Virus record (IMG/VR): IMGVR_UViG_3300044267_002854 | Coordinates: 1-51,764 of that record | Origin: a virus | Taxonomy: Duplodnaviria; Caudoviricetes | Reading direction: 5' to 3' (one strand) | DNA: 51,764 bases | Shown: positions 11,437 to 43,647 of the stretch, piece after piece | Layout: every line of letters begins with the position of its first letter | Position numbering within the stretch: the stretch's first letter is position 1 | Position numbers and translations under genes: made by a program | The notes under the pieces: generated by a model | Seen by the model: only the letters and a program-made list of their open reading frames with translations | Databases searched by the model: none | What the model was told of the DNA's origin: nothing

Positions 11437-12894
11437 TTAACGTATCCAGTCTTTCCACTTTTCTTCGCCGAGGACTTCGGCTGCGATGTTTTGCTTTGCC
11501 AAAAGCGATTTAACAATTTTTTCATCTACTGTATCCTTACAAACAATATCGATATATGTGACCTTGTTGACCTGACCTATACGATGAGCTCTGTCCTCTG
11601 ATTGTAGGCGCTTCTCAAGGTCAAAGTTGTTGGAGTAGTATATCACAGTAGATGCTGCGGTTAAATTAATCCCGTACCCACCCGTCTGTGTGTTACCAAC
11701 CATAAACCTCAGAGGCGATTTAAGGTCTTGAAACTGTTTAAGGTATAGCCCCCTATCAAAATCATTTACATCGCCGTAATATGCGCCCACAGAGTCTTCT
11801 CCATATGTTTTCCGTATAGCTTCTAAGATACGGTGTATGTCGTGGCGGTAATTTGCCCATATAATTGCTTTACCTTCGACTTCTTCCAGTATATTCATTA
11901 ATTCATCTAGTCTTTTTGACTTAACTTCCATGTTTTCTTTATCGTCAGTAGTCATAAACCCACAAGACAACTGATGTAAGCGAAGCATCTTAGTCAATAC
12001 TGATGTCGCCGAAACCTGCTGACCTCCTTTCTCTTCGTCATATAGTTGAGTGATTGCGTACGCTTTAATTTCTTTATACGCCTTCTCTTGTTCAGGAGTC
12101 ATCTCTATGTTCCGTGTCATGTATATCTTATCGGGCAGATCTAGGCAGTCTTTTTTCAAAACTCTTGAACTAAATTTTAGGAGTAGTTCGTTCAGCTCTT
12201 CTAGGTTTTTATAACCTACAACCTGTTTGAATGTTCTGCCTCCTGCCGTTCTATTCAGCATCTCAGCGTATCTTGCTCTGAAACTATAGTAGCTACTATA
12301 CCCCAACAACTCAGGGTCTAAGAACTCACACTGCGTATAGAGGTCTAAAGGGCTACGAGTTACAGGAGAACCTGTAAGTATTCTGCGGTACTGTGCGTAC
12401 TTAGAAAGTCGAACTATGCTCTTAGTTCTCCTAGCGCTTGGTGATTTAATTGTGGTGCTCTCGTCTACAGCGAACAATGCTCTTTTACCCAGTAAAAATT
12501 TTCCTGCAAATTTTGTGCCTTTTTGAGTACTGAACGCCTCAACATTCATCACGAGTATAGTAAGATCTATACTGTTTCCTAGTATCTCTTCTCTTTGTGC
12601 TTGGTTCTTCTTTGTTTCCGAAGGTGACCATTTATAAACCCGAGTTTTTATATAATCGGGCATGTGTGCAGGTATCTCACCGCTCACCCAGTTGTCGTAC
12701 ACGCCTTTAGGGGCTACGATCAAAGCACTATCGATCCTGCCCTTATTATATAGGATAGCAATATTGTCTAATAAGATTTTACTCTTACCACAACCCATCT
12801 CTAAAAATAAAGCATGGTCAATAGTCGACCAACAATCTTTCAGAACCCTGTCTTGATGATCATAGGGTTTTGTTTTATATACAAAGTCTAACAT
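11437..12894 (-). CDS. SNF2-family (SF2) helicase
   Basis: LEMGCGKS (Walker A), VDEST, LTGSP, GGYGINLTAA, QSEDRAHRIGQ. Confidence 0.93.
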   Translation of the reverse strand: MLDFVYKTKPYDHQDRVLKDCWSTIDHALFLEMGCGKSKILLDNIAILYNKGRIDSALIVAPKGVYDNWVSGEIPAHMPDYIKTRVYKWSPSETKKNQAQREEILGNSIDLTILVMNVEAFSTQKGTKFAGKFLLGKRALFAVDESTTIKSPSARRTKSIVRLSKYAQYRRILTGSPVTRSPLDLYTQCEFLDPELLGYSSYYSFRARYAEMLNRTAGGRTFKQVVGYKNLEELNELLLKFSSRVLKKDCLDLPDKIYMTRNIEMTPEQEKAYKEIKAYAITQLYDEEKGGQQVSATSVLTKMLRLHQLSCGFMTTDDKENMEVKSKRLDELMNILEEVEGKAIIWANYRHDIHRILEAIRKTYGEDSVGAYYGDVNDFDRGLYLKQFQDLKSPLRFMVGNTQTGGYGINLTAASTVIYYSNNFDLEKRLQSEDRAHRIGQVNKVTYIDIVCKDTVDEKIVKSLLAKQNIAAEVLGEEKWKDWIR

Positions 12895-18048: not shown

Positions 18049-18879
18049 ATGCAAACAAATATGATACAAGCATTCTTTGATTACATCAACGAGAGGCATG
18101 CTATTTATATTAATAAGTCTTCGGGCGCAGAGTTCCCTTGGACTGAAGACGAGATACTACAGACCTATAGCTTTTGTAATGTATTTAGGGAACTAGACAC
18201 AGTCACCATATGGCTTCGTAAAAACTGGAGAGAGCCGTATGCCGACCACCCCAACCTTCCTTTCGCTATGGCGATGGCTCGTCAAATCAATTGGCCAGCA
18301 ACTTTAGAAGAGATCGGCTTCCCTGAGGAATGGAACCCAGAACATGCTAAAAATGTTATGAGGGCTAGAAAACTTAAAAAAGAGAAAGTGTACACTGGTG
18401 CGTACATGTTGACGGGAACGCTAGGTGGTTCAAAAATCGATCAAACCATCGATAAAATACTAACCCCTCTGTATGAAAACCAACCTGAAATCTACTCCCA
18501 CTCGTTAGAACAGAGTTGGAGAGAGTATTTAAAGTACAAGGGTTTTGCCAAGTTTATATCCTATGAAGTTATTACAGACCTAAGACACACTAAACACTTA
18601 GAAAACGCAAACGACATAATGACTTGGGCTAATCCAGGTCCAGGAGCAAAGAGAGGACTCAACCGTATAAGCGGTAAAGAACTCAATGAGCCTATGCACA
18701 TTAAACGGGCTATAGAGGAAATGAGAGAGCTGTTACAATATTCTTTAAAAGAGCTCGAACCTTTTGTACCTGCCCTAGAGATGAGAGACATAGAGCACTC
18801 ATTATGTGAGTTTGATAAATATGAACGAACCAGATTAAACCAAGGGAGACCACGTGCTAAATATCACAAACCTGTTTAA
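18049..18879 (+). CDS. 5-hmdU DNA kinase-like protein (aGPT-Pplase1/HMUDK helical family)
   Basis: ERHAIY...PWTEDEILQTYSFCNVFRELD, GPGAKRGL, RDIEHSLCEFDKY: HhH-glycosylase-like fold signature recalled for this family. Confidence 0.8.
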   Translation: MQTNMIQAFFDYINERHAIYINKSSGAEFPWTEDEILQTYSFCNVFRELDTVTIWLRKNWREPYADHPNLPFAMAMARQINWPATLEEIGFPEEWNPEHAKNVMRARKLKKEKVYTGAYMLTGTLGGSKIDQTIDKILTPLYENQPEIYSHSLEQSWREYLKYKGFAKFISYEVITDLRHTKHLENANDIMTWANPGPGAKRGLNRISGKELNEPMHIKRAIEEMRELLQYSLKELEPFVPALEMRDIEHSLCEFDKYERTRLNQGRPRAKYHKPV

Positions 18880-19183
18880 AACAGTAAAAGAAGACGAGCG
18901 ATATCTCGTTGAAGACAACACACACCTAAAGACCATGGTTGTGAGTAAAACAACCCTAAAGCCTGAGAAAGAAACCACAGGACATTTCCACGAAGGACAG
19001 GAAGAAGTTTATTTATTTGTTAAGGGTAGGGGTGTACTAGAAACACACACCGAACTCATACAGGTGGTTGAAGGAGACGTCGTAGTCATAGACGATGGAG
19101 ATTTTCATAAGGTTTCTAATACATCAGACACAGTAGACCTAGAGTTTATTTGTGTGTTTCCAGGAGAACGCTATGAACATTGA
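18854..19183 (+). CDS. cupin-domain protein
   Basis: GHFHEGQEEVYLFVKGRG...GDVVVIDDGDFHKV. Confidence 0.85.
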   Translation: MLNITNLFKTVKEDERYLVEDNTHLKTMVVSKTTLKPEKETTGHFHEGQEEVYLFVKGRGVLETHTELIQVVEGDVVVIDDGDFHKVSNTSDTVDLEFICVFPGERYEH

Positions 19184-19841
19184 GTGGAGTGAAAAGGTTA
19201 ATGGCTTTGTTAGACCAGACACACTAGACGAATACGTTTTTAAAGAAATAAAGCCGTCTTACAAGTGTTTAGAGATATCTCCAGGAGATGTTGTGCTAGA
19301 TGTAGGCGCTAACATTGGAGCATTCACTAAGTATGCCTTAGAGTTAGGTGCAGAAGTTCATGCGTATGAGCCTGAAGAAGAAAACTATTTAATTATGTTA
19401 GAAAACATTAACTCACTTGACGCCATAGCTTATGCTAACAAGAAAGTTTTAACAGAACGGTGTGCGGTGGTGGGTGATGACAGCAAGTCTATTTCCCTGT
19501 ATGTTAACTCTAAGAAAAACAAAGGGCTACACATGACTAGACCAGTTCGTGGTCGTGAAGGGGTAGAGGTAGAGGCAAAAAACTTTGATGAAATAATCAC
19601 ATCAAAGCAACCAAATAAAATAAAGATTGATGTAGAGGGAGGAGAGTACAGCTTTATGCCTACGGTCTTTCCTGATTGTGTAGAGAAATTAGCAATGGAA
19701 CTACACTTTCAATACAACAAAGAGTGGAGAGGCATGGCAGTAAAGATACATGAAGACATGTTGTCGCAAGGCTTTTCCGTAATAAGAGAACCTAAATTCA
19801 CAGGTGGTAATTGGACCACATTAGCGGGGTATTCAAGATGA
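19173..19841 (+). CDS. FkbM-family SAM-dependent methyltransferase
   Basis: VLDVGANIGAF, AYEP, KIDVEGGE. Confidence 0.88.
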   Translation: MNIEWSEKVNGFVRPDTLDEYVFKEIKPSYKCLEISPGDVVLDVGANIGAFTKYALELGAEVHAYEPEEENYLIMLENINSLDAIAYANKKVLTERCAVVGDDSKSISLYVNSKKNKGLHMTRPVRGREGVEVEAKNFDEIITSKQPNKIKIDVEGGEYSFMPTVFPDCVEKLAMELHFQYNKEWRGMAVKIHEDMLSQGFSVIREPKFTGGNWTTLAGYSR

Positions 19842-20596
19842 AAGTATACATTCCAACAAGAGGCAGATCAAAAGACCAAACAACCCTAAAGTTTTTTCCT
19901 GAAGGACTAAAGGATAAAACAATATTAGTCGTAGACCACGACGAGAGAGATCAGTACGATGCTTACCCAAATGTATGGGTAATGCCTGAAGACTTGCCAA
20001 GCGGTATTTCACCAAAGCGAAAATATATTTGTGAGAATAGCGACGATCCTAAGGTGGTCATGCTTGACGACGACATACGCTTTTACATAAGAAAAGCATT
20101 CAACGACTGGCACTTGCGTTATTTAGAACCACACGAGCTACCAGCCATGTTTGGCGTTCTTGATAAGTGGTTAAACGATTATGCGCATTGTGGTGTGAGC
20201 GCTAGGGAAGGAAACAATCGAGTAGAAGACCTTTCCGTAGAGAACACTAGGTATATGCGATTACTCGCCTATAACATGGACATGTTGGACGGGGTAGAAC
20301 TAGGAAGGACTCGGATTATGGAGGACTTTGATGTTAACCTGCAACTATTAAGGAAGGGTAAAAAATCTAAGGTCAGCTATTACTATGCGCAAGGACAAGG
20401 CACCTCTAACGCCGATGGCGGTTGTAGTGAGTGGCGAAACCTAGACGTACAGGCAGAAGGTGCGGAACTATTAGCTTCCCTACACCCTGACTTTGTAAGG
20501 GTGGTTGAAAAGAAAACTAAAGAGGCTTGGGGTGGAGGCACTCGCAAGGACGTAATTGTACAATGGAAGAAGGCATATGCAAGTAGTCAAAGTTAA
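19838..20596 (+). CDS. TET-associated-type (TAGT/GREB1-like) glycosyltransferase
   Basis: N-terminal YIPTRGR, MLDDD (DxD), EDFDVNLQLLRKG, GGCS. Confidence 0.72.
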   Translation: MKVYIPTRGRSKDQTTLKFFPEGLKDKTILVVDHDERDQYDAYPNVWVMPEDLPSGISPKRKYICENSDDPKVVMLDDDIRFYIRKAFNDWHLRYLEPHELPAMFGVLDKWLNDYAHCGVSAREGNNRVEDLSVENTRYMRLLAYNMDMLDGVELGRTRIMEDFDVNLQLLRKGKKSKVSYYYAQGQGTSNADGGCSEWRNLDVQAEGAELLASLHPDFVRVVEKKTKEAWGGGTRKDVIVQWKKAYASSQS

Positions 20597-21647
20597 GAAT
20601 GTAAATCAAGCCCTCCCGTTAGGGATGAGCCTACTATATGAAGACGGAGTTCTTCGTGAGAGTCGAGCAGGAGACGTTATAGAATATCCTGGAGTCGTGG
20701 CGACAGTTTATGAAAAACCCACAGAAAGAGTATTGTTTAGCCCAGAAAGAGACGCTAACCCTTTCTTTCATTTCATAGAAGGTTTATGGATGCTTGACGG
20801 CAGGAACGACGTGGAGAGTATTGCACATTATGTCAAGCGCATGGGTAAGTTTAGCGACGACAGCAAAACACTGCATGGAGCATACGGACATCGATGGCGT
20901 TCGTGGTTTGGCAGAGACCAACTGCTTGAAGTCATAAACCGACTCTCTCTTTTCGAAGAAGACAGACGTGTTGTCCTAACGATGTGGGATCCTGAGAATG
21001 ATTTTACTTGTATGGAAGAAGGTGCTAAAGATGTTCCTTGTAACACTCACGTTTATTTTAAAGTTAGGGACGGCAAACTACACATGACAGTCTGTTGTCG
21101 TAGCAATGATATGATTTGGGGTGCTTACGGTGCTAACGCAGTACACATGTCCATGTTGCAGGAATTTATAGCTAACGCTATCAAAAAACAGGTAGGAACG
21201 TACACACAAATCAGCGACAGTTATCATGCCTATCAAGACGTTTATGCAAACCTACTGGATAAAATTCCTCCCGTAGATGTCTGGAATTTTCATCATGTGT
21301 ACAGCGATCCGTACAAACTAGACACCATACAGGCATATCCTCAGCTACTGTTAACCGACCACGTCAGTTGGTTAGAGACTAATAATCAGTTTCTATCTAC
21401 AGTTTTCGACCACTCGATGGAGCCCGAAGCGATAAAAAAGTGGAACTACCACTCAAACCCAGCAAAAGAAGACCCGTTTTTTGTCAATGTCGCAGAACCT
21501 ATCGCTGTTGCTTGGGAACACTACAAACTGTACAAAGAACTAGGTATAAGGGAAGAGATACAGAAAGCCCTATATGCGCTCAGTCCGTGCTTAGCTGGTG
21601 ATTGGCGCAGAGCCTGCATAGAGTGGATAGAGAGGAGGGCTAATTAA
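20577..21647 (+). CDS. thymidylate synthase homolog, probable dUMP hydroxymethylase
   Basis: Catalytic DVPCN; RSNDMIWGAYGAN (Asn at the pyrimidine-specificity position, so dUMP); SYHAY; gene neighbourhood. Confidence 0.8.
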   Translation: MQVVKVKNVNQALPLGMSLLYEDGVLRESRAGDVIEYPGVVATVYEKPTERVLFSPERDANPFFHFIEGLWMLDGRNDVESIAHYVKRMGKFSDDSKTLHGAYGHRWRSWFGRDQLLEVINRLSLFEEDRRVVLTMWDPENDFTCMEEGAKDVPCNTHVYFKVRDGKLHMTVCCRSNDMIWGAYGANAVHMSMLQEFIANAIKKQVGTYTQISDSYHAYQDVYANLLDKIPPVDVWNFHHVYSDPYKLDTIQAYPQLLLTDHVSWLETNNQFLSTVFDHSMEPEAIKKWNYHSNPAKEDPFFVNVAEPIAVAWEHYKLYKELGIREEIQKALYALSPCLAGDWRRACIEWIERRAN

Positions 21648-29309: not shown

Positions 29310-29473
29310 CAGTACCGACTGTAGAAACTTATGAAGTGGTTTCAGAAATACCGCTAACAAAGGAAGAAATAGTGAAAAGAACACAACACAGAAAGCCTCA
29401 AGATATAAAATACAGCGAGGCTATACCTACTGTTCTTGTCATAGAAGGGGTTATAGAGGATGAAGAAAACTAG
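29270..29473 (+). CDS. hypothetical protein
   Basis: GGAGG RBS. Confidence 0.6.
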   Translation: MGSEKTNRYVVEIAVPTVETYEVVSEIPLTKEEIVKRTQHRKPQDIKYSEAIPTVLVIEGVIEDEEN

Positions 29474-29888
29474 AGGATTTACTTGTGGAGCATTCGACCT
29501 ACTGCATCCTGGGCACCTATATTTCTTCAAAAAAGCAAAACAAAAGTGTGATCATTTAGTTATCGGACTACACACAGACCCAACAATAGACCGCCCCGAC
29601 TCAAAAAACAAGCCATGTGAATCGACCTACGAACGTTGGCTGAGGCTCGACTCAGTGAAGTATGTTGACGAAATTATCCCGTACGATACCGAATCTGATT
29701 TATGGAACTTGTTGCAAATGCTAGACCTAGACTTCAGGTTTTTAGGCGACGACTACAAAAATAAACCATTCACAGGAAAAGAACTGCCCATCAACATAGA
29801 GTACATCAGTAGGGATCATGCTTATTCTTCCAGTGGCTTAAGAAAAAGAATAGCAGAAAACGAACGGTGGCGCAAAGAACCTACATAA
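29460..29888 (+). CDS. cytidylyltransferase (TagD/glycerol-3-phosphate cytidylyltransferase-like)
   Basis: GAFDLLHPGH (HxGH), VDEIIPY, GDDY, YSSSGLR. Confidence 0.88.
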   Translation: MKKTRGFTCGAFDLLHPGHLYFFKKAKQKCDHLVIGLHTDPTIDRPDSKNKPCESTYERWLRLDSVKYVDEIIPYDTESDLWNLLQMLDLDFRFLGDDYKNKPFTGKELPINIEYISRDHAYSSSGLRKRIAENERWRKEPT

Positions 29889-31661: not shown

Positions 31662-31918
31662 AGATACTGGGTGTAATTATATTTTTAGCAGGAATGTTTG
31701 TGTTTAGTAGTGGCTTAGTGTTCTTGGACTTAGCGTCCCTGCCTTTGAAAAAAGACCTATACACCATAGATGTGCTGGGGCTTTTTAACAATATGTTTTC
31801 ATTAGACCCCTCAACAGCAAGTTTTCAGTCTATACTGTCTGCGTTGTTTATATTGATGGGTTGCTTTATCTGCTTTGCAGGAACTATATTAATGAGGAAT
31901 GACGATGGATCTATTTAA
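31658..31918 (+). CDS. two-TM membrane protein
   Basis: Two hydrophobic segments. Confidence 0.65.
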   Translation: MKILGVIIFLAGMFVFSSGLVFLDLASLPLKKDLYTIDVLGLFNNMFSLDPSTASFQSILSALFILMGCFICFAGTILMRNDDGSI

Positions 31919-32510
31919 AGGAAGAGCCAAAAACTACCCAGTGCGGATTAGAGAATGGGATGAACGCACCGACAGAGATTGGGAGGACACGGAAGTGATA
32001 GGTAGACCTACCCGAGCTTTCGGTACTTCTGTGTTTGAGTACGCAGGAAAAACCTATGAACCTCACCCCTGGGAAGAAAACGAAGACTTGGAAGATTTAA
32101 AAAAGTATTTAGAGGATTGGTTGACCGTAGAATACGACCGACCCGTAAAGTTCACTTTTTGTTTATGTGGGCTTTATGAATACTCTTGGGATGAGATACC
32201 TCATCATTCGGATACCGTACCAACTTACAACGACCTAGTGGTTGGTGTTTCTTACGGTTCACCTAGAATTTTAGAGTGGCTGACCTACCGAGGCGATATT
32301 AAAGCAGAAACCAATACCAGCAAGACTCACTTTATTAAGTACGATGAAGAGATCGCCGACTACTGGGAACCAACTAAAACCAGCTATTTATTGGAAGATG
32401 GTGACGTCTACGTGTTCGACGGACATAGCCAAATGTGCTCGACTCATGCGATTCCTCCTCTCGTAGGTACGGGGTCTAGATACAGCCTAACCTTTAGAAC
32501 AGGCATCTAG
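31899..32510 (+). CDS. AlkB-like 2OG-Fe(II) oxygenase
   Basis: HSD...VSYG...THAIP...RYSLTFR. Confidence 0.82.
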   Translation: MTMDLFKGRAKNYPVRIREWDERTDRDWEDTEVIGRPTRAFGTSVFEYAGKTYEPHPWEENEDLEDLKKYLEDWLTVEYDRPVKFTFCLCGLYEYSWDEIPHHSDTVPTYNDLVVGVSYGSPRILEWLTYRGDIKAETNTSKTHFIKYDEEIADYWEPTKTSYLLEDGDVYVFDGHSQMCSTHAIPPLVGTGSRYSLTFRTGI

Positions 32511-34386: not shown

Positions 34387-35046
34387 ATGAATAAAGAACT
34401 TATAGATACTCGGTTAGTAGCTAAACTCATGAATCAAACCGCTAAAGAATGTGGTATGGTTCGGGTTTATAGTTGTACTGATACTCTTTGGTGGGGTAAG
34501 GTATACGAACTAGAAAAACGGGGCGCTATATATCCTGCGTATAACTATAGAAGGTTGGCTAAATGCTATAATTTTCTAGACGATCGTTTTATAGACGAAC
34601 TCACTAAAAAGGCTAAAGCCGAAGGTTTTGATTTGGCTGATTCCTCACTTAACGCTTATAAACGGAAATCAAAGGTGCGTAATCACTCCTGCCCTAAGTA
34701 TAAAAAGAAACTTAAACACTATTTTGATAACTGGAAGCAGGATAGTAGAATGCCTGTAGCCCGTATTATACCCAATACTGAAAATGCGGTTTACGTTAGG
34801 CTGATCGCCCACTTTAAGAATAAGGTATATTCGGTTAAATCAATAAACCCTGCTTCAAAAATAACTACGGGGATTTGTTATCTGGATATGCCCCGCTTGG
34901 CTGAAATGGTTAATTACTATATAGAAAGTGAACACTGGGAAGAGGTCACCGAAGATTGTACTTTTGAATTAACCCGTATACAAACAGGAAAAAAGGTTAT
35001 ATATACCTACGAAGAACTGCTTAAGTTTTTCGCTGATTCTAAGTAA
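34387..35046 (+). CDS. hypothetical protein
   Basis: 219 aa; promoter TTTAGT-N17-TATAAT at 34326. Confidence 0.75.
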   Translation: MNKELIDTRLVAKLMNQTAKECGMVRVYSCTDTLWWGKVYELEKRGAIYPAYNYRRLAKCYNFLDDRFIDELTKKAKAEGFDLADSSLNAYKRKSKVRNHSCPKYKKKLKHYFDNWKQDSRMPVARIIPNTENAVYVRLIAHFKNKVYSVKSINPASKITTGICYLDMPRLAEMVNYYIESEHWEEVTEDCTFELTRIQTGKKVIYTYEELLKFFADSK

Positions 35047-35233
35047 ACCTGTTCACGCCCCTTTACTTTTCTTGTAAAAGGGCGTTGTTGTTTTTTAACA
35101 ACTGATTCTGCACTGTTCATTGGCTGGGGCAATACCCTAAGGAGGATGGAAGCCCCTGTTGTTAGTGGGCTATTTGCGTATTAGTGTTGGAGAGTGGGAG
35201 AAATGTTTTTAAAAGTTAAATCAAATCGTGTTT

Positions 35234-35336
35234 TAGCCAATAGGGCAATAGTGTTTGAAGTAAGTATTTGAATAATAAGAAGAAATGTTATATTGGCTAG
35301 AGCTATTGGCTGAATATTGCCTAGATTAGCCAATAT
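35234..35336. repeat. second cluster of AGCCAATA/TATTGGCT repeats
   Basis: Six copies or variants at 35234, 35244, 35291, 35302, 35315 and 35327. Confidence 0.7.
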
Positions 35337-35383
35337 AATTGGGTATATTTTGGGTATGTTTTACAAGACGACATGTAAACAGT

Positions 35384-35715
35384 CTCATGGTTCTGGAACC
35401 TCTGTATCCACTGTTGTATACTATAGTTGTTCTGTCTCTTGGAGCTTGGGTCTCCTCTAAGATTCTTCGGCTCCCCGTCCCAAGAGCCAAGAATCTCTTA
35501 CAAGATCGATAAACAAGAAGAAAAAGAGACAGAAACAGAGATCTTCTTCTTGTTCTTCTTGGTTCAAGGACAAGAACCAAGAGCGATAATCGATAATCAT
35601 GAAGAACAAGAACATGAACCATTGCTCTTCTTCTTGTTCTTGCTCCTTGTTCTTCTTCTTGCTCACAAGGGCACGGGCACGGGCTTTTCTTCCTGTTTAT
35701 GTTCTTTATCTTCTT
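35384..35715. repeat. period-3 low-complexity tracts (GAA/CAA/CAT versus TTC/TTG/CTC)
   Basis: For example gaagaacaagaacatgaacc and ttcttcttgttcttgctcc. Confidence 0.8.
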
Positions 35716-35727
35716 TTAGAAAAGGGC

Positions 35728-35756
35728 TTTACTTTCTAGTAGTAAAGGGGTATCAT
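35728..35756 (+). promoter_or_regulatory. promoter TTTACT-N17-TATCAT with CTTTACT/AGTAAAG inverted repeat
   Basis: Recurrent motif. Confidence 0.7.
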
Positions 35757-35806
35757 ATCTTTACTAACTAATAACGGTTAGCAATTAACTTAAAAAGGTG
35801 AACTAC

Positions 35807-36097
35807 ATGCCACAATTAAGTAAAGCTGAAAAAACCGCAGTTAAGAAGGTCAAGGCTCAAGCTTCTGCTAAAGTAGAAGTTAAGGGTATGGGTGGTTTTC
35901 CTGTTACCGCTACTATTAAAGCTACAGGGAAACAACCAAGAGCTGGGCACAACCAAGATTGGGTTGATGCTTTTGATGGTCTCACCATTGGGGATTTCAT
36001 CGCTATTAAAAATAGTGATAAAATGCTCGGTGGATTTCAACGAGATACATCGGCTCTACGTTACTTCGTCAAGCACGGCTTCGTAACTATAGGGTAA
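35807..36097 (+). CDS. small basic putative DNA-binding protein (paralog of 37248)
   Basis: AAGGTG RBS; FPVTATI...FDGLTIGDFI...LRYFVKHGFVTIG. Confidence 0.75.
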   Translation: MPQLSKAEKTAVKKVKAQASAKVEVKGMGGFPVTATIKATGKQPRAGHNQDWVDAFDGLTIGDFIAIKNSDKMLGGFQRDTSALRYFVKHGFVTIG

Positions 36098-36107
36098 TCC
36101 CAAGAAG

Positions 36108-36138
36108 TCCCTCTTACTTAGGTAAGGGGGATTTTCTC
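36108..36138 (+). terminator. intrinsic terminator
   Basis: TCCCTCTTAC/GTAAGGGGGA stem followed by TTTT. Confidence 0.65.
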
Positions 36139-36141
36139 TAA

Positions 36142-36225
36142 CCGATAATCCCCAAGAACAAGAACACGAACCAAGATTCTTCTTCTTGTTGTTCAGTATA
36201 AGCACAACAAGAAGAACATGAACTC
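36142..36225. repeat. second period-3 GAA/CAA versus TTC/TTG tract
   Basis: cgataat..caagaacaagaacacgaacc..ttcttcttcttgttgttc, similar to 35584-35645. Confidence 0.75.
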
Positions 36226-36233
36226 ACGCTGGG

Positions 36234-36624
36234 TATAATCCACTAGGTCTTCCCTTTACTTTTTACTACTATATAGGGGTATTAATAAACTATAAGGTGA
36301 AATTATGAACTATGTAATAAATGATAAGGTCAAATTAAAGCCTATATCTAAAGGCGCTTCAAGCACTTGGTGGTATGACGAGGAAACTAATGAACTGTAT
36401 AAGTGGTTTCCACCAGCTTACCATGCAGGAACGGGGTATATTAACCGCCCCAGCTCTATTAGAAAGGTCACTGAGTTTAATATTGATAGTATGAATATCC
36501 CTAACTACGTTTTTAAACGAATGAAGACTAAATACTTAGGTTGGTCTTTATAATCCACTAGGTCTTCCCCCTAGTTTTTACTACTATAGTAGGGTAATAA
36601 ATTACTATAAGGTGAAATTATGAA
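36234..36624 (+). repeat. duplicated approx. 75-bp promoter/RBS leader (36234-36309 and 36549-36624)
   Basis: tataatccactaggtcttccc...tttttactactata...actataaggtgaaattatgaa occurs twice. Confidence 0.85.
36305..36553 (+). CDS. hypothetical protein
   Basis: Starts at the end of the duplicated leader. Confidence 0.7.
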   Translation: MNYVINDKVKLKPISKGASSTWWYDEETNELYKWFPPAYHAGTGYINRPSSIRKVTEFNIDSMNIPNYVFKRMKTKYLGWSL

Positions 36625-36952
36625 ATATGTTAATATGTACCGCACCAGCAGGTGCTACGGTGGACCCGAAGAGGGAGGCTGGTGGTATACTCAGGGAGAG
36701 TTCATAAAGTGCTACGGCATGTACTCTTCCAACGGGGATGCTAATTTAAAGGTAAAAAGGCTACAAGAGTCCCTTACTTACGAACCCACCTATCACTCTG
36801 GGTACGGTGATCACGACGGTGTTGACCCTTCAGGTAACGGCGATGATGCCTACCTCATCCCAGGTGGCGCTTGGGGGAAGGACGAAATATCCTTCTTAGT
36901 TGAAGACCATATAGGCGCTAACTTCCCTCGCTACACACCTCGCTACGAGTAA
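36620..36952 (+). CDS. conserved hypothetical protein (YGGPEEGGWWY motif)
   Basis: Starts at the end of the duplicated leader. Confidence 0.75.
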   Translation: MKYVNMYRTSRCYGGPEEGGWWYTQGEFIKCYGMYSSNGDANLKVKRLQESLTYEPTYHSGYGDHDGVDPSGNGDDAYLIPGGAWGKDEISFLVEDHIGANFPRYTPRYE

Positions 36953-36961
36953 TCCCCCGTG

Positions 36962-36997
36962 GCTCATGGTTCTGGTTTACCTTACAGAACCATGAGC
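36962..36997. terminator. perfect 13-bp hairpin
   Basis: GCTCATGGTTCTG-N10-CAGAACCATGAGC; no U tract. Confidence 0.55.
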
Positions 36998-37007
36998 TCT
37001 AAACCTC

Positions 37008-37097
37008 GATAAAGATAAAGATAAACAAAACCAAACCCGAACTCATACTCTTGTTCATGCTCATGTTCTTGTTCATGCTCGCATTCGTGTGTATGTG
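37008..37097. repeat. third period-3/6 tract (GATAAA x3; YTCWTG-type hexamers)
   Basis: gataaagataaagataaac...ctcttgttcatgctcatgttcttgttcatgctc. Confidence 0.8.
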
Positions 37098-37105
37098 GCT
37101 ACCCC

Positions 37106-37194
37106 TTTACTTATAACTAGTAGTTATATAGTTTTACCTTATAACTAAATATTATATTTAAACCCCTTTACTTACCCGTTAAAAAGCGTACTAT
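37106..37194 (+). promoter_or_regulatory. tandem promoters TTTACT-N17-TAGTTT (37106) and TTTACT-N16-TACTAT (37167)
   Basis: Recurrent motif. Confidence 0.6.
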
Positions 37195-37247
37195 TATAGG
37201 TACTATTAAATAATTAAGTTTAATAGCGTAAATAAAGGTAAATAAAA

Positions 37248-37580
37248 ATGGTAAATAAAACTAAAGGTACTAACGCTAACCTTACCGCTAATAGCGTAAC
37301 TATAAACGGTACTAGCTACCCCTTAACCGCTACTATAACCGTAGTTAACGGCGGTACGGTAAACCCTAAAAACGCTTATATATTAAATAGCGTTTATAAC
37401 GGGGCTACCGTAGCTAATATAGTACGGGCTAAAGCTAACCCTAGCGCTAAAGTTAATAACGCTTTAAGTACTAAAGCGTTAGCTAAAGCTAATATTAGTT
37501 TAGGTAGTAGCGCTAGTACCGTTTTAAGTAAAACGGGGTTAGGGTATTTTTTAAAGGGCGGTAAAATAACTATAAGCTAA
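37248..37580 (+). CDS. small basic protein lacking D, E, H, Q, C, W and internal M (paralog of 35807)
   Basis: Has its own promoters, an AAGGT RBS and a terminator; YPLTATI...YNGATVANIV...LGYFLKGGKITIS. Confidence 0.8.
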   Translation: MVNKTKGTNANLTANSVTINGTSYPLTATITVVNGGTVNPKNAYILNSVYNGATVANIVRAKANPSAKVNNALSTKALAKANISLGSSASTVLSKTGLGYFLKGGKITIS

Positions 37581-37597
37581 CCTTTAAACCCTAGCGG

Positions 37598-37634
37598 TAA
37601 GCCCCCTAGCTAATAACTAGGGGGCTTATTTTTT
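37598..37634 (+). terminator. intrinsic terminator
   Basis: TAAGCCCCCTAG-N7-CTAGGGGGCTTA followed by T6. Confidence 0.85.
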
Positions 37635-37860
37635 ATAGGGGCGTAGGGTAGTAAAGGGGTATAAAAGTAAAGGGCTTAAAAGGGCTATAATTAAGCCGTA
37701 GGGGTAGCCCCGCCCCCCTTTATAGCATAACCCTGTAGCTATAGCTAAAGGGTAAGATTTGGAGAGGCATTCACCATGGATTTCGAATTTTTGCAAATTT
37801 CCTTTACTTCTTGTGCAAAATAAGCAAAAATATTTCTTGCAAAATTTTTAGGAGAAAATT

Positions 37861-38022
37861 ATGGCAATCGGATTAACGAATTGGTTCAAAAAGACTTTTC
37901 TCGGTTATGAGGAAAAAACTGTTCGCAACCGCACAAAGAAAGGAAGGTTCGTAGCAGACGATCCTAAGACAAAAGACATAAACGAAGCGTACACTACTAA
38001 GACTTATAGAAAAAAGAAGTAA
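37861..38022 (+). CDS. small basic protein (53 aa)
   Basis: AGGAG RBS; RNRTKKGRFVADDPKTKDINEAY motif. Confidence 0.7.
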   Translation: MAIGLTNWFKKTFLGYEEKTVRNRTKKGRFVADDPKTKDINEAYTTKTYRKKK

Positions 38023-42998: not shown

Positions 42999-43199
42999 AT
43001 GGATTGGTTAACGGCGACTGAGTTTTTACTCAAACAGTCTCGTAAAAGACAGGAAGAGTTAAAAAATACTCTCGTTGGTGGTGGTGCGGCAGACTATACG
43101 CAATACCAACGCCTGATTGGCGAAATAACAGGACTAAACTTTATTGAAAACGAAATAATTGGATTACATAAAAGGATGGAAACACCAGATGAAGAATGA
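42999..43199 (+). CDS. conserved hypothetical protein
   Basis: DYTQYQRLIGEITGL motif, before GroES. Confidence 0.7.
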   Translation: MDWLTATEFLLKQSRKRQEELKNTLVGGGAADYTQYQRLIGEITGLNFIENEIIGLHKRMETPDEE

Positions 43200-43647
43200 A
43201 GCGCAAAAAACTAAGAAGGAGATACCTCCTTTCGTTTCGAACTTTGGCTCTGAAGACACAGAACCAGAACCAACTAATTTTACACCAGATGACCTGATGA
43301 AAGACCAAAAGTTGTCAGAAAAACTACCTAAACCAACAGGTTATCGTATGCTAATTTTACCTTTTGCTCCTGCAGAGAAGACAAAAGGTGGAATCTATCT
43401 GGCTAAGCAAACTGTAGACCGAGAGCGTCTAACTACAGTAGTCGGCTACGTTGTAGCCCTTGGACCAGATGCCTATAAAGACCTAAATAAATTTCCTGAA
43501 GGCGCTTGGTGCCAAGAAGGAGATTGGGTCATTTTTGGACGCTATGCGGGTGCTCGAATCCAGATTGAAGGAGGAGACTTGCGCCTTTTAAACGACGATG
43601 AAATTTTAGCATTAATAGACGATCCTGAAGATATTCTTGGGGGATAA
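43189..43647 (+). CDS. groES: co-chaperonin GroES-like protein
   Basis: PTGYRML, EKTKGGIYL, GDWVIFGRYAG, LLNDDEILA. Confidence 0.9.
   Translation: MKNEAQKTKKEIPPFVSNFGSEDTEPEPTNFTPDDLMKDQKLSEKLPKPTGYRMLILPFAPAEKTKGGIYLAKQTVDRERLTTVVGYVVALGPDAYKDLNKFPEGAWCQEGDWVIFGRYAGARIQIEGGDLRLLNDDEILALIDDPEDILGG

Follow-up and report, generated by a model that had tools for sequence, protein, structure and literature searches.

Introduction

Base hypermodification of phage DNA has been treated mainly as armour against nucleases. In phages M6, ViI and phiW-14, thymine hypermodification occurs in a TpS context, that is at TC or TG (PMC6449724), and in SH-Ab 15599 TG is preferred over TC (PMC13458397). We analyzed a 51,764-nt stretch of DNA from a caudovirus (IMG/VR record IMGVR_UViG_3300044267_002854, positions 1 to 51,764; hereafter the window), in which three non-coding repeat tracts (35503-35715, 36142-36225 and 37008-37097) lie beside a block (37098-37725) that is practically free of TS steps, counted throughout as TC or TG on either strand (TC, TG, CA, GA). 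We favor, with a probability of about 40%, the reading that the tracts are ancestral arrays that were retuned into modification-dense landing sites for the small protein family encoded at 35807 and 37248, where they would mark the boundaries of gene cassettes.

The window resembles M6, ViI, phiW-14 and SH-Ab 15599 in having a 5-hydroxymethyluracil (hmU) synthase-like gene and a homolog of M6 gp55, and in that TS is the class of step excluded from the block (PMC6449724, PMC8989533, PMC13458397). It differs from the M6 type in that neither the gp54 kinase nor an amino acid:DNA transferase was detected, with a TAGT glycosyltransferase found instead, and from YuA, M6 and Sonora in possessing a TS-free block. 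In print, the TS preference is attributed to the kinase (PMC6449724), and gp55 was dispensable when the M6 pathway was reconstituted (PMC8989533). A DNA-hypermodification gene set has already been described for the HTVC023P-type lineage, to which the window belongs and with which it shares the same genes near PolA (Wittmers 2022, PMC9599517). The main text of that paper does not contain the terms promoter, noncoding, intergenic or dinucleotide, and the tracts, the block and the small domain were not found in the portions consulted.

Both the cluster of modification genes and TS as a modified context had been described before, and we regard the tracts as a variant of known boundary elements. 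One of these is base J of kinetoplastids, a glycosylated hmU made by a TAGT-family enzyme and concentrated at the borders of transcription units, a likeness that for the window is inferred (PMC4150806, PMC4111573). The window differs in that it belongs to a phage without JBP/TET, modification density would follow sequence under genome-wide modification, and the candidate reader is another domain. In the first-step-transfer DNA of T5/BF23, the first-expressed region is likewise shaped by sequence avoidance and bordered by non-coding repeats (PMC10644984). The window block, a putative first-expressed region, is about 0.6 kb rather than 9.7 kb and avoids a modification context rather than restriction sites. 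T7 carries short heptamer repeats beside its terminal repeats, comparable to the 7-bp arrays near the packaging region of the podophages described below, and TF1 of SPO1 is a small, HU-like DNA-binding protein that prefers hmU, a precedent for a small basic phage protein favoring modified-thymine DNA. The domain encoded at 35807 and 37248 is instead winged-helix-like, and the arrays switch to 3- or 6-bp spacing with TAGT. A literature search over titles and abstract openings, with few subscription journals, found nothing on modification-free blocks with flanking dense arrays, nor on the small domain; the portions consulted of PMC10484667, PMC11945000 and PMC3517423 contain nothing relevant.

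Three repeat tracts beside a TS-free block

The three tracts belong to one repeat family, in which a CGATAA start is followed by a GAA/CAA arm and then by a TTC/TTG arm. Copies of 55 nt begin at 35503, 35587 and 36139, with a partial copy at 37006. As the initial annotation had described, each tract consists of runs of S-A-N triplets (SAN) that switch to N-T-S triplets (NTS). Tract 1 (35503-35715) contains two SAN-to-NTS units spaced 84 nt apart plus an NTS tail; the relatives L011 and L014 have a single unit. Tract 2 (36142-36225) has the arrangement SAN-NTS-SAN with a 3-bp period, and tract 3 (37008-37097) begins with SA steps at 6-bp spacing followed by a dense NTS run that reaches the block. 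The tracts recur in the independent contigs L010, L011 and L014, and are therefore no assembly artefact.

TS density is 0.31 per base in the tracts compared to 0.237 genome-wide, and 50-55% of tract thymines lie in TS steps, versus 40% in the window. Tract 1 (35500-35715) contains 67 TS steps where base shuffles give 51.4 (p = 0.002), and 5 TA steps where 19.9 are expected; tract 2 reaches p = 0.049 for TS density. Since 6-7% of same-length windows elsewhere match the density of tracts 2 and 3, the original description of the tracts as saturated was too strong. The 3-bp spacing it proposed was borne out by periodicity analysis in tracts 1 and 2, in which 50% (23% in dinucleotide shuffles) and 64% of the gaps between TS steps equal 3, neither value being reached in 2000 dinucleotide shuffles. 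Tract 3 does not conform, its 3-bp gaps being non-significant (p = 0.085), and is mainly 6-bp periodic, with same-strand autocorrelation at lag 6 (z = 7.5) and lag 3 (z = 3.5). For the autocorrelation the window tracts were chosen by eye, as were windows in L224, L065, L214 and L221. The strands alternate in blocks (15 switches in tract 1 versus 37 expected) but not step by step. The T-biased lead-in to tract 1 (35384-35500), which had been included in the annotated range, is ordinary and passes neither the enrichment nor the periodicity tests.

The depleted block was confirmed at 37098-37725, with a single TS step, the ATG start codon of gene 37248. This gene (37248-37580, + strand) encodes a 110-residue protein without D, E, Q, H, C, W or internal M. 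The block also contains two promoter-like sites (37106 and 37167) and, at 37596-37630, a terminator. Its paralog, the gene at 35807-36097 (+ strand), encodes a 96-residue basic protein and has an ordinary TS content (0.21). That tract 3 ends exactly where the block begins is partly true by definition, but the last 60 nt of the tract do hold 23 TS steps.

We considered whether the 3-bp period could come from coding, with the tracts specifying peptides rich in E/Q and F/L. A TTG-started frame through tract 1 is open in the window, in L010 (114 residues) and in L011 (73 residues), and of 60 windows drawn at random from the gene-rich part of the window, 10 exceed z = 2 at lag 3. In L014, however, this tract 1 frame is interrupted, and no Shine-Dalgarno-like word precedes any candidate start in the tracts. 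Tract 2 has no + strand start in three of four close relatives, and in the window none before the core in the + triplet frame, and the arms of tract 3 are not in frame with each other. A coding reading is thus unlikely at the sequence level, in agreement with the non-coding status originally assigned, and a peptide origin of the periodicity appears highly improbable.

The pairing of SAN with NTS arms could alternatively form cruciforms or RNA hairpins. Compared with shuffled sequence, folding is indeed more stable for the tract 1 units and tract 2 (DNA z -2.7 to -4.6), but not for tract 3 (z 0.7-0.9), and the alignment of tract 1 shows a variable first arm opposite a fixed second arm. Moreover, an alphabet of GAA/CAA and TTC/TTG pairs by construction, and Rfam gave no match at the gathering score in 35000-37900. 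We consider structural elements of this kind very unlikely.

Thymine-modification genes

By TerL, which is 55-62% identical to those of HTVC023P, HTVC027P, 023Pt_psg01 and DSL-LC04, and by gene content, the window phage is a marine podophage of the HTVC023P type. It shares TerL and PolA kinship with this lineage, together with PolA-proximal genes for thymidylate synthase, aG/PT-PPlase1, glucosyltransferase and deoxynucleotidase, and carries a TAGT cluster. Pfam/PHROGs and tblastn place this thymine-modification cluster at 18049-21647 (+ strand), with HMUDK_hel, cupin, FkbM methyltransferase, TAGT and thymidylate-synthase-like genes; HMUDK_hel, the TAGT glycosyltransferase, the thymidylate-synthase-like protein and an HD nucleotidase are all encoded ahead of PolA. 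The TAGT gene (19811-20596) matches PF20691 (E = 1e-21). The thymidylate-synthase-like gene (20556-21647; PF00303) is 44-46% identical to those of YuA, M6 and Sonora, and its product is probably a dUMP hydroxymethylase. HMUDK_hel is the M6 gp55 homolog (41% identity, tblastn).

Searches with M6 gp54 or Sonora gp41 gave no tblastn match to a P-loop 5-hmdU DNA kinase at E < 1e-3, although a remote homolog is possible. The amino acid:DNA transferase aGPT-Pplase2 was not matched by tblastn with the M6 open reading frames longer than 150 residues upstream of gp54, nor by Pfam among the 54 window proteins, which likewise gave no Pfam match to JBP/TET (one 2OG-Fe(II) oxygenase is present at 31899). 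With the gp55 homolog present but the gp54 kinase and the transferase undetected, virion DNA may carry 5-hmU glycosylated by TAGT at TpS, to which the TS-free block speaks only indirectly. The earlier supposition that TpS is the modified context agrees with other phages and with the cluster found here, but not with the undetected kinase homolog.

Spacing differs between phages with and without TAGT

Repeat tracts poor in TA are present in this region even where TAGT is lacking; in HTVC027P-like phages, for instance, GCTTGAA-like units lie upstream of early promoters. The position of the tracts is therefore ancestral; their spacing is not. To compare the groups, the most repetitive 120-nt window per genome was picked automatically, skipping windows below 0.10 TS, in 15 TAGT phages and 11 others. 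L065 and L073, which could be assigned to neither group, and the HTVC027P-like contigs (listed as L445, L448, L453, L474, L479, L480, L485 and L489) were left out; for L497, L500 and L235, TAGT absence was judged from a missing hmU synthase gene in contigs 86-95% complete. The observed/expected ratio of TS was 1.38 in TAGT phages and 1.11 in the others (p = 0.007). A lag-3 or lag-6 signal of z > 2 was present in 11 of 15 TAGT phages versus 0 of 11 others, and a lag-7 signal in 0 of 15 versus 6 of 11 (p = 1e-4). Since the 3/6-bp spacing never occurred in relatives without TAGT, which often have 7-base repeats instead, the tracts are good candidates for modification-coded landing sites. Because repeat tracts occupy the region in relatives without the glycosyltransferase too, often at 7 bp, the tracts probably arose by retuning of an existing array and did not originate as modified patches. 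The modified-patch reading of the initial annotation, which had overlooked these relatives, is supported in part.

In the TerL tree the window and L014 cluster with L037 and L051 (support 100/99). These nearest relatives without TAGT (L037; L051/G048) have 7-bp tracts and no block. The modification cluster is missing at the syntenic site in G006 (L037). In G048 (L051 lineage; L514:6558-7895) the hmU synthase and HMUDK_hel are kept, and a GT1-like glycosyltransferase and a dUTPase replace TAGT, possibly specifying a different thymine modification. A phage that retains synthase and HMUDK_hel with another glycosyltransferase-like gene thus has a 7-bp tract, which ties the pattern to TAGT.

The same comparison bears on an ancestral HTVC023P-type signal for packaging, injection pausing or replication, recognized by the small terminase or another core protein, in which TS richness and spacing would have arrived with the cassette module, independent of modification. 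Repeat tracts in this region of phages without TAGT, and the location of the window tracts between an origin-like stretch and the terminase genes, fit such a signal, as does the repeat-rich non-coding region at the border of first- and second-step DNA in T5-like phages (PMC10644984); the TAGT link, in turn, rests on only about two independent contrasts. As expected of a T5-type injection stop signal, the window region is non-coding and abounds in repeats, both direct and inverted. On the other hand, the signal would not predict that 3/6-bp spacing is confined to phages with TAGT and 7-bp spacing to those without it, despite unrelated tract words in the window lineage and the larger TAGT clade. 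The tracts also number one for each cassette, not one for the whole genome, and contig starts upstream of TerL show neither clustering at one site nor a sharp terminus. We regard this explanation as unlikely.

Blocks and flanks in relatives

TS-free or TS-poor blocks occur upstream of TerL in many relatives; none was found in YuA, M6, Sonora, HTVC023P, HTVC027P, DSL-LC04 or phiJL001. We compared the flanks using one hand-picked representative for each of 18 lineages. The flank on the early-gene side was denser in TS than the other flank in 17 of 18 (0.32 versus 0.21); in 14 of 18 its density reached at least the 90th percentile for the locus. The words that build the tracts vary by lineage, from CAAGAA/TTCTTC in the window to GATCAT, GACAAA, CCATGG or CTGGTG elsewhere. 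Conservation of the pattern rather than the sequence, which had been proposed as a check, therefore holds across most lineages, but L032 has a block without an adjacent tract. Several relatives carry a short tract on the opposite side of the block as well. We do not claim a strand polarity (SA distal, TS proximal), since just 12 of the 18 lineages show it (p = 0.06).

Among 16 lineages, the block's family gene is oriented leftward in 8, so that the tract abuts the terminator end, and rightward in 6, where the tract abuts the promoter end; it lies outside the block in 2. As the side on which the tract lies does not change with gene orientation, the tract marks a boundary and is no activator site at a fixed distance. 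The latter was rejected, offsets to the nearest promoter-like site ranging over 9-70 nt and the tract often lying at the terminator end.

Near the packaging genes of G048 and G076 we found no other dinucleotide-free blocks, while G073 and G084 show weak TS-poor stretches of 138-201 nt. Just past the small terminase gene, G073 and G084 also have CTCTA-type repeat tracts, with hmU synthase present and TAGT absent; as a possible chimera, G084 carries two genes for PolA. A GC-rich 3-bp N-T-S tract (CTG GTG CTC ...) lies on the packaging side of the TS-poor cassette of G004 (L078:8590-8850).

A boundary role could be passive. Dense sugar-modified thymines and missing -10 hexamers would then prevent the host RNA polymerase from starting within the tracts or passing through them, without a reader protein. 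TANNNT hexamers are absent from 188 nt of tract 1 (35503-35690), compared to 4.3 per 100 nt genome-wide, and the tracts follow terminators, or lie between convergent terminators in G001, G002 and G004. The window has 20 promoter-like sites of TTTACT type and none of TTGACA type, and base J regulates termination in Leishmania (PMC4150806). Passive insulation does not account for the fixed 3/6-bp spacing, however, as repeats of 2 bp would reach a higher density; TANNNT hexamers remain in tract 2 (1) and tract 3 (3); TTTACT sites are common in unmodified HTVC023P too (11); and TA depletion is shared with phages without TAGT. As the sole explanation it seems rather unlikely, although it is compatible with the landing-site reading.

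A small winged-helix-like family

The paralogs 35807 and 37248 belong to a family with up to five matches per contig. Members were found in 25 of 29 TAGT contigs, the four misses being 50-81% complete, and in none of six named phages; five other genomes without TAGT gave a single weak match (E = 0.013). TS content per base varies among the copies of relatives between 0.003 and 0.31, with the smallest values in those located in the block. Many of the G019-G047 relatives have, several kb from TAGT, a longer member (open frame of about 180-200 residues, for example G020:31477-31662), of which the window has none.

The structure predicted for the relative L062 (pLDDT 88) has three helices between two strands. 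It matches many winged-helix chains at Z 2.6-5.0, with none standing out; Foldseek on the PDB gave no match at E <= 0.001, and the ESM Atlas only unnamed viral clusters. The best viral fold match is phiJL001 gp18 (hhalign E = 2.8e-6), encoded within a cluster with a glucosyltransferase and a hydroxymethylase-like gene. Of 121 distant family matches, eight were looked up, and five of these belong to dinoflagellates (four genera). In three dinoflagellate proteins the domain is C-terminal to TAGT matches that fall below the Pfam cutoff (E 2e-5 to 0.035). In P0071, P0054, P0080, P0009 and P0005 the dinoflagellate domain stands in tandem or behind a TAGT-like region, in one case with a C5 DNA methylase. 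Dinoflagellates replace 12-68% of T by hmU, and the 5hmU motif mapped in Amphidinium is GTTGTTGTTG, a 3-bp TG repeat (bioRxiv 2023.11.30.569493). We take the phiJL001 and dinoflagellate co-occurrences as leads on binding, not as proof of it.

A proposed mechanism and its weighing

We favor the following reading. The tracts are non-coding repeat arrays that would bracket small early gene cassettes beside a TC/TG-free block, in virion DNA whose 5-hmU is glycosylated by TAGT at TpS. On entry, host RNA polymerase may first read the unmodified block, yielding the 37248 protein. A protein of this family would then bind modified thymines 3 or 6 bp apart and coat the tracts, which, helped by the missing -10 hexamers, would keep transcription from starting in or crossing them. 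The arrays would thereby fence each early cassette, the ancestral 7-bp array having been retuned when the TAGT module and the small domain were acquired. Of the functions offered by the initial annotation, a protein landing pad and an insulator fit best. A further step, doubtful as a whole, is that the phage lineage encodes a chromatin-like landscape in its sequence. A modification-free island that the host can read first would be fenced by glycosyl-hmU arrays at 3/6-bp spacing, and these arrays, read by a dedicated small domain shared with dinoflagellate nuclei, would trigger the following phase of expression or of genome entry.

Several points weigh against the landing-site reading. The TAGT label provides only about two independent contrasts on the TerL tree, so the p-values given above are inflated and overstate the case, and co-inheritance of one module explains the correlation with TAGT equally well. 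The 3/6 signal is missing in 4 of 15 TAGT phages, while L037 and G048, without TAGT, have TS observed/expected ratios of 1.27-1.28. Neither TA depletion (p = 0.24) nor the per-lineage TC fraction (p = 0.065) differs significantly between the groups. L032 has a block and a family gene but an ordinary flank (0.20), and phiJL001 has TAGT and the small domain but no TS-free block. The kinase credited in print with the TS preference appears to be missing from the window genome. Finally, the winged-helix likeness of the predicted fold is weak, and the TAGT fusion in dinoflagellates, below the Pfam cutoff, was seen neither by hhalign nor by a custom profile.

Decoys that titrate a host modification-dependent nuclease had also been suggested. 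Hosts do encode such nucleases, for example GmrSD (PMC5889632), but about 120 tract sites among some 12,000 TS sites in the genome would add only about 1%, and cutting a decoy inside the genome would hit the phage itself. This idea found no support and is scarcely credible.

Should the tracts prove to be both modified and read, hypermodification would serve abundant marine phages as positional information. This would bear on how host RNA polymerase starts on hypermodified DNA. Dinoflagellates, in which the hmU-rich genome is still little understood, would gain a candidate protein that reads hmU or its glycoside. The switch from 7-bp to 3/6-bp spacing allows a direct binding test.

Other features of the locus

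Upstream of the tracts, an AT-rich non-coding stretch with AGCCAAT/ATTGGCT repeats (35050-35380), found in relatives with and without TAGT, may be replication-origin-like. Between tract 1 and gene 35807 lies a promoter-like site, TTTACT-17-TATCAT, with a TS-free -35 hexamer (35728-35756, + strand), and a terminator-like hairpin (36104-36135, + strand; RNA z = -3.6) is situated immediately 5' of tract 2. Two exchangeable cassettes follow (36234-36952, + strand; genes 36305-36553 and 36620-36952), each headed by a copy of an 82-nt promoter and ribosome-binding-site repeat (36234-36315 and 36549-36630). The genes behind this repeat differ in L010 and L011 and are absent in L014. A strong hairpin (36961-36998; z about -6) precedes tract 3. 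Downstream of the block, the motif TTGCAAAATTTTT (37826-37849, + strand) stands 5' of the late genes across HTVC023P-type relatives. A motif scan and a scan with the 38024 protein were noisy, yielding loci in reverse orientation and in other gene contexts, a few of which were re-oriented and included in the analysis.

TTTACT-type sites are distributed window-wide (e.g. 25982, 27792, 28100, 28681, 29907, 30640 and 32529). The corresponding counts of TTTACT versus TTGACA are 6 versus 0 in YuA, 7 versus 0 in Sonora and 4 versus 0 in phiJL001. A host search matched six contigs of metagenome-assembled genomes from unrelated taxa and was uninformative on the host. Elsewhere, the window encodes an SNF2 helicase on the opposite strand (11437-12894, - strand), a cytidylyltransferase-like protein (29460-29888) for which a role in activated-sugar supply would be a guess, the 2OG-Fe(II) oxygenase mentioned above (31899-32510) and a GroES homolog (43159-43647).

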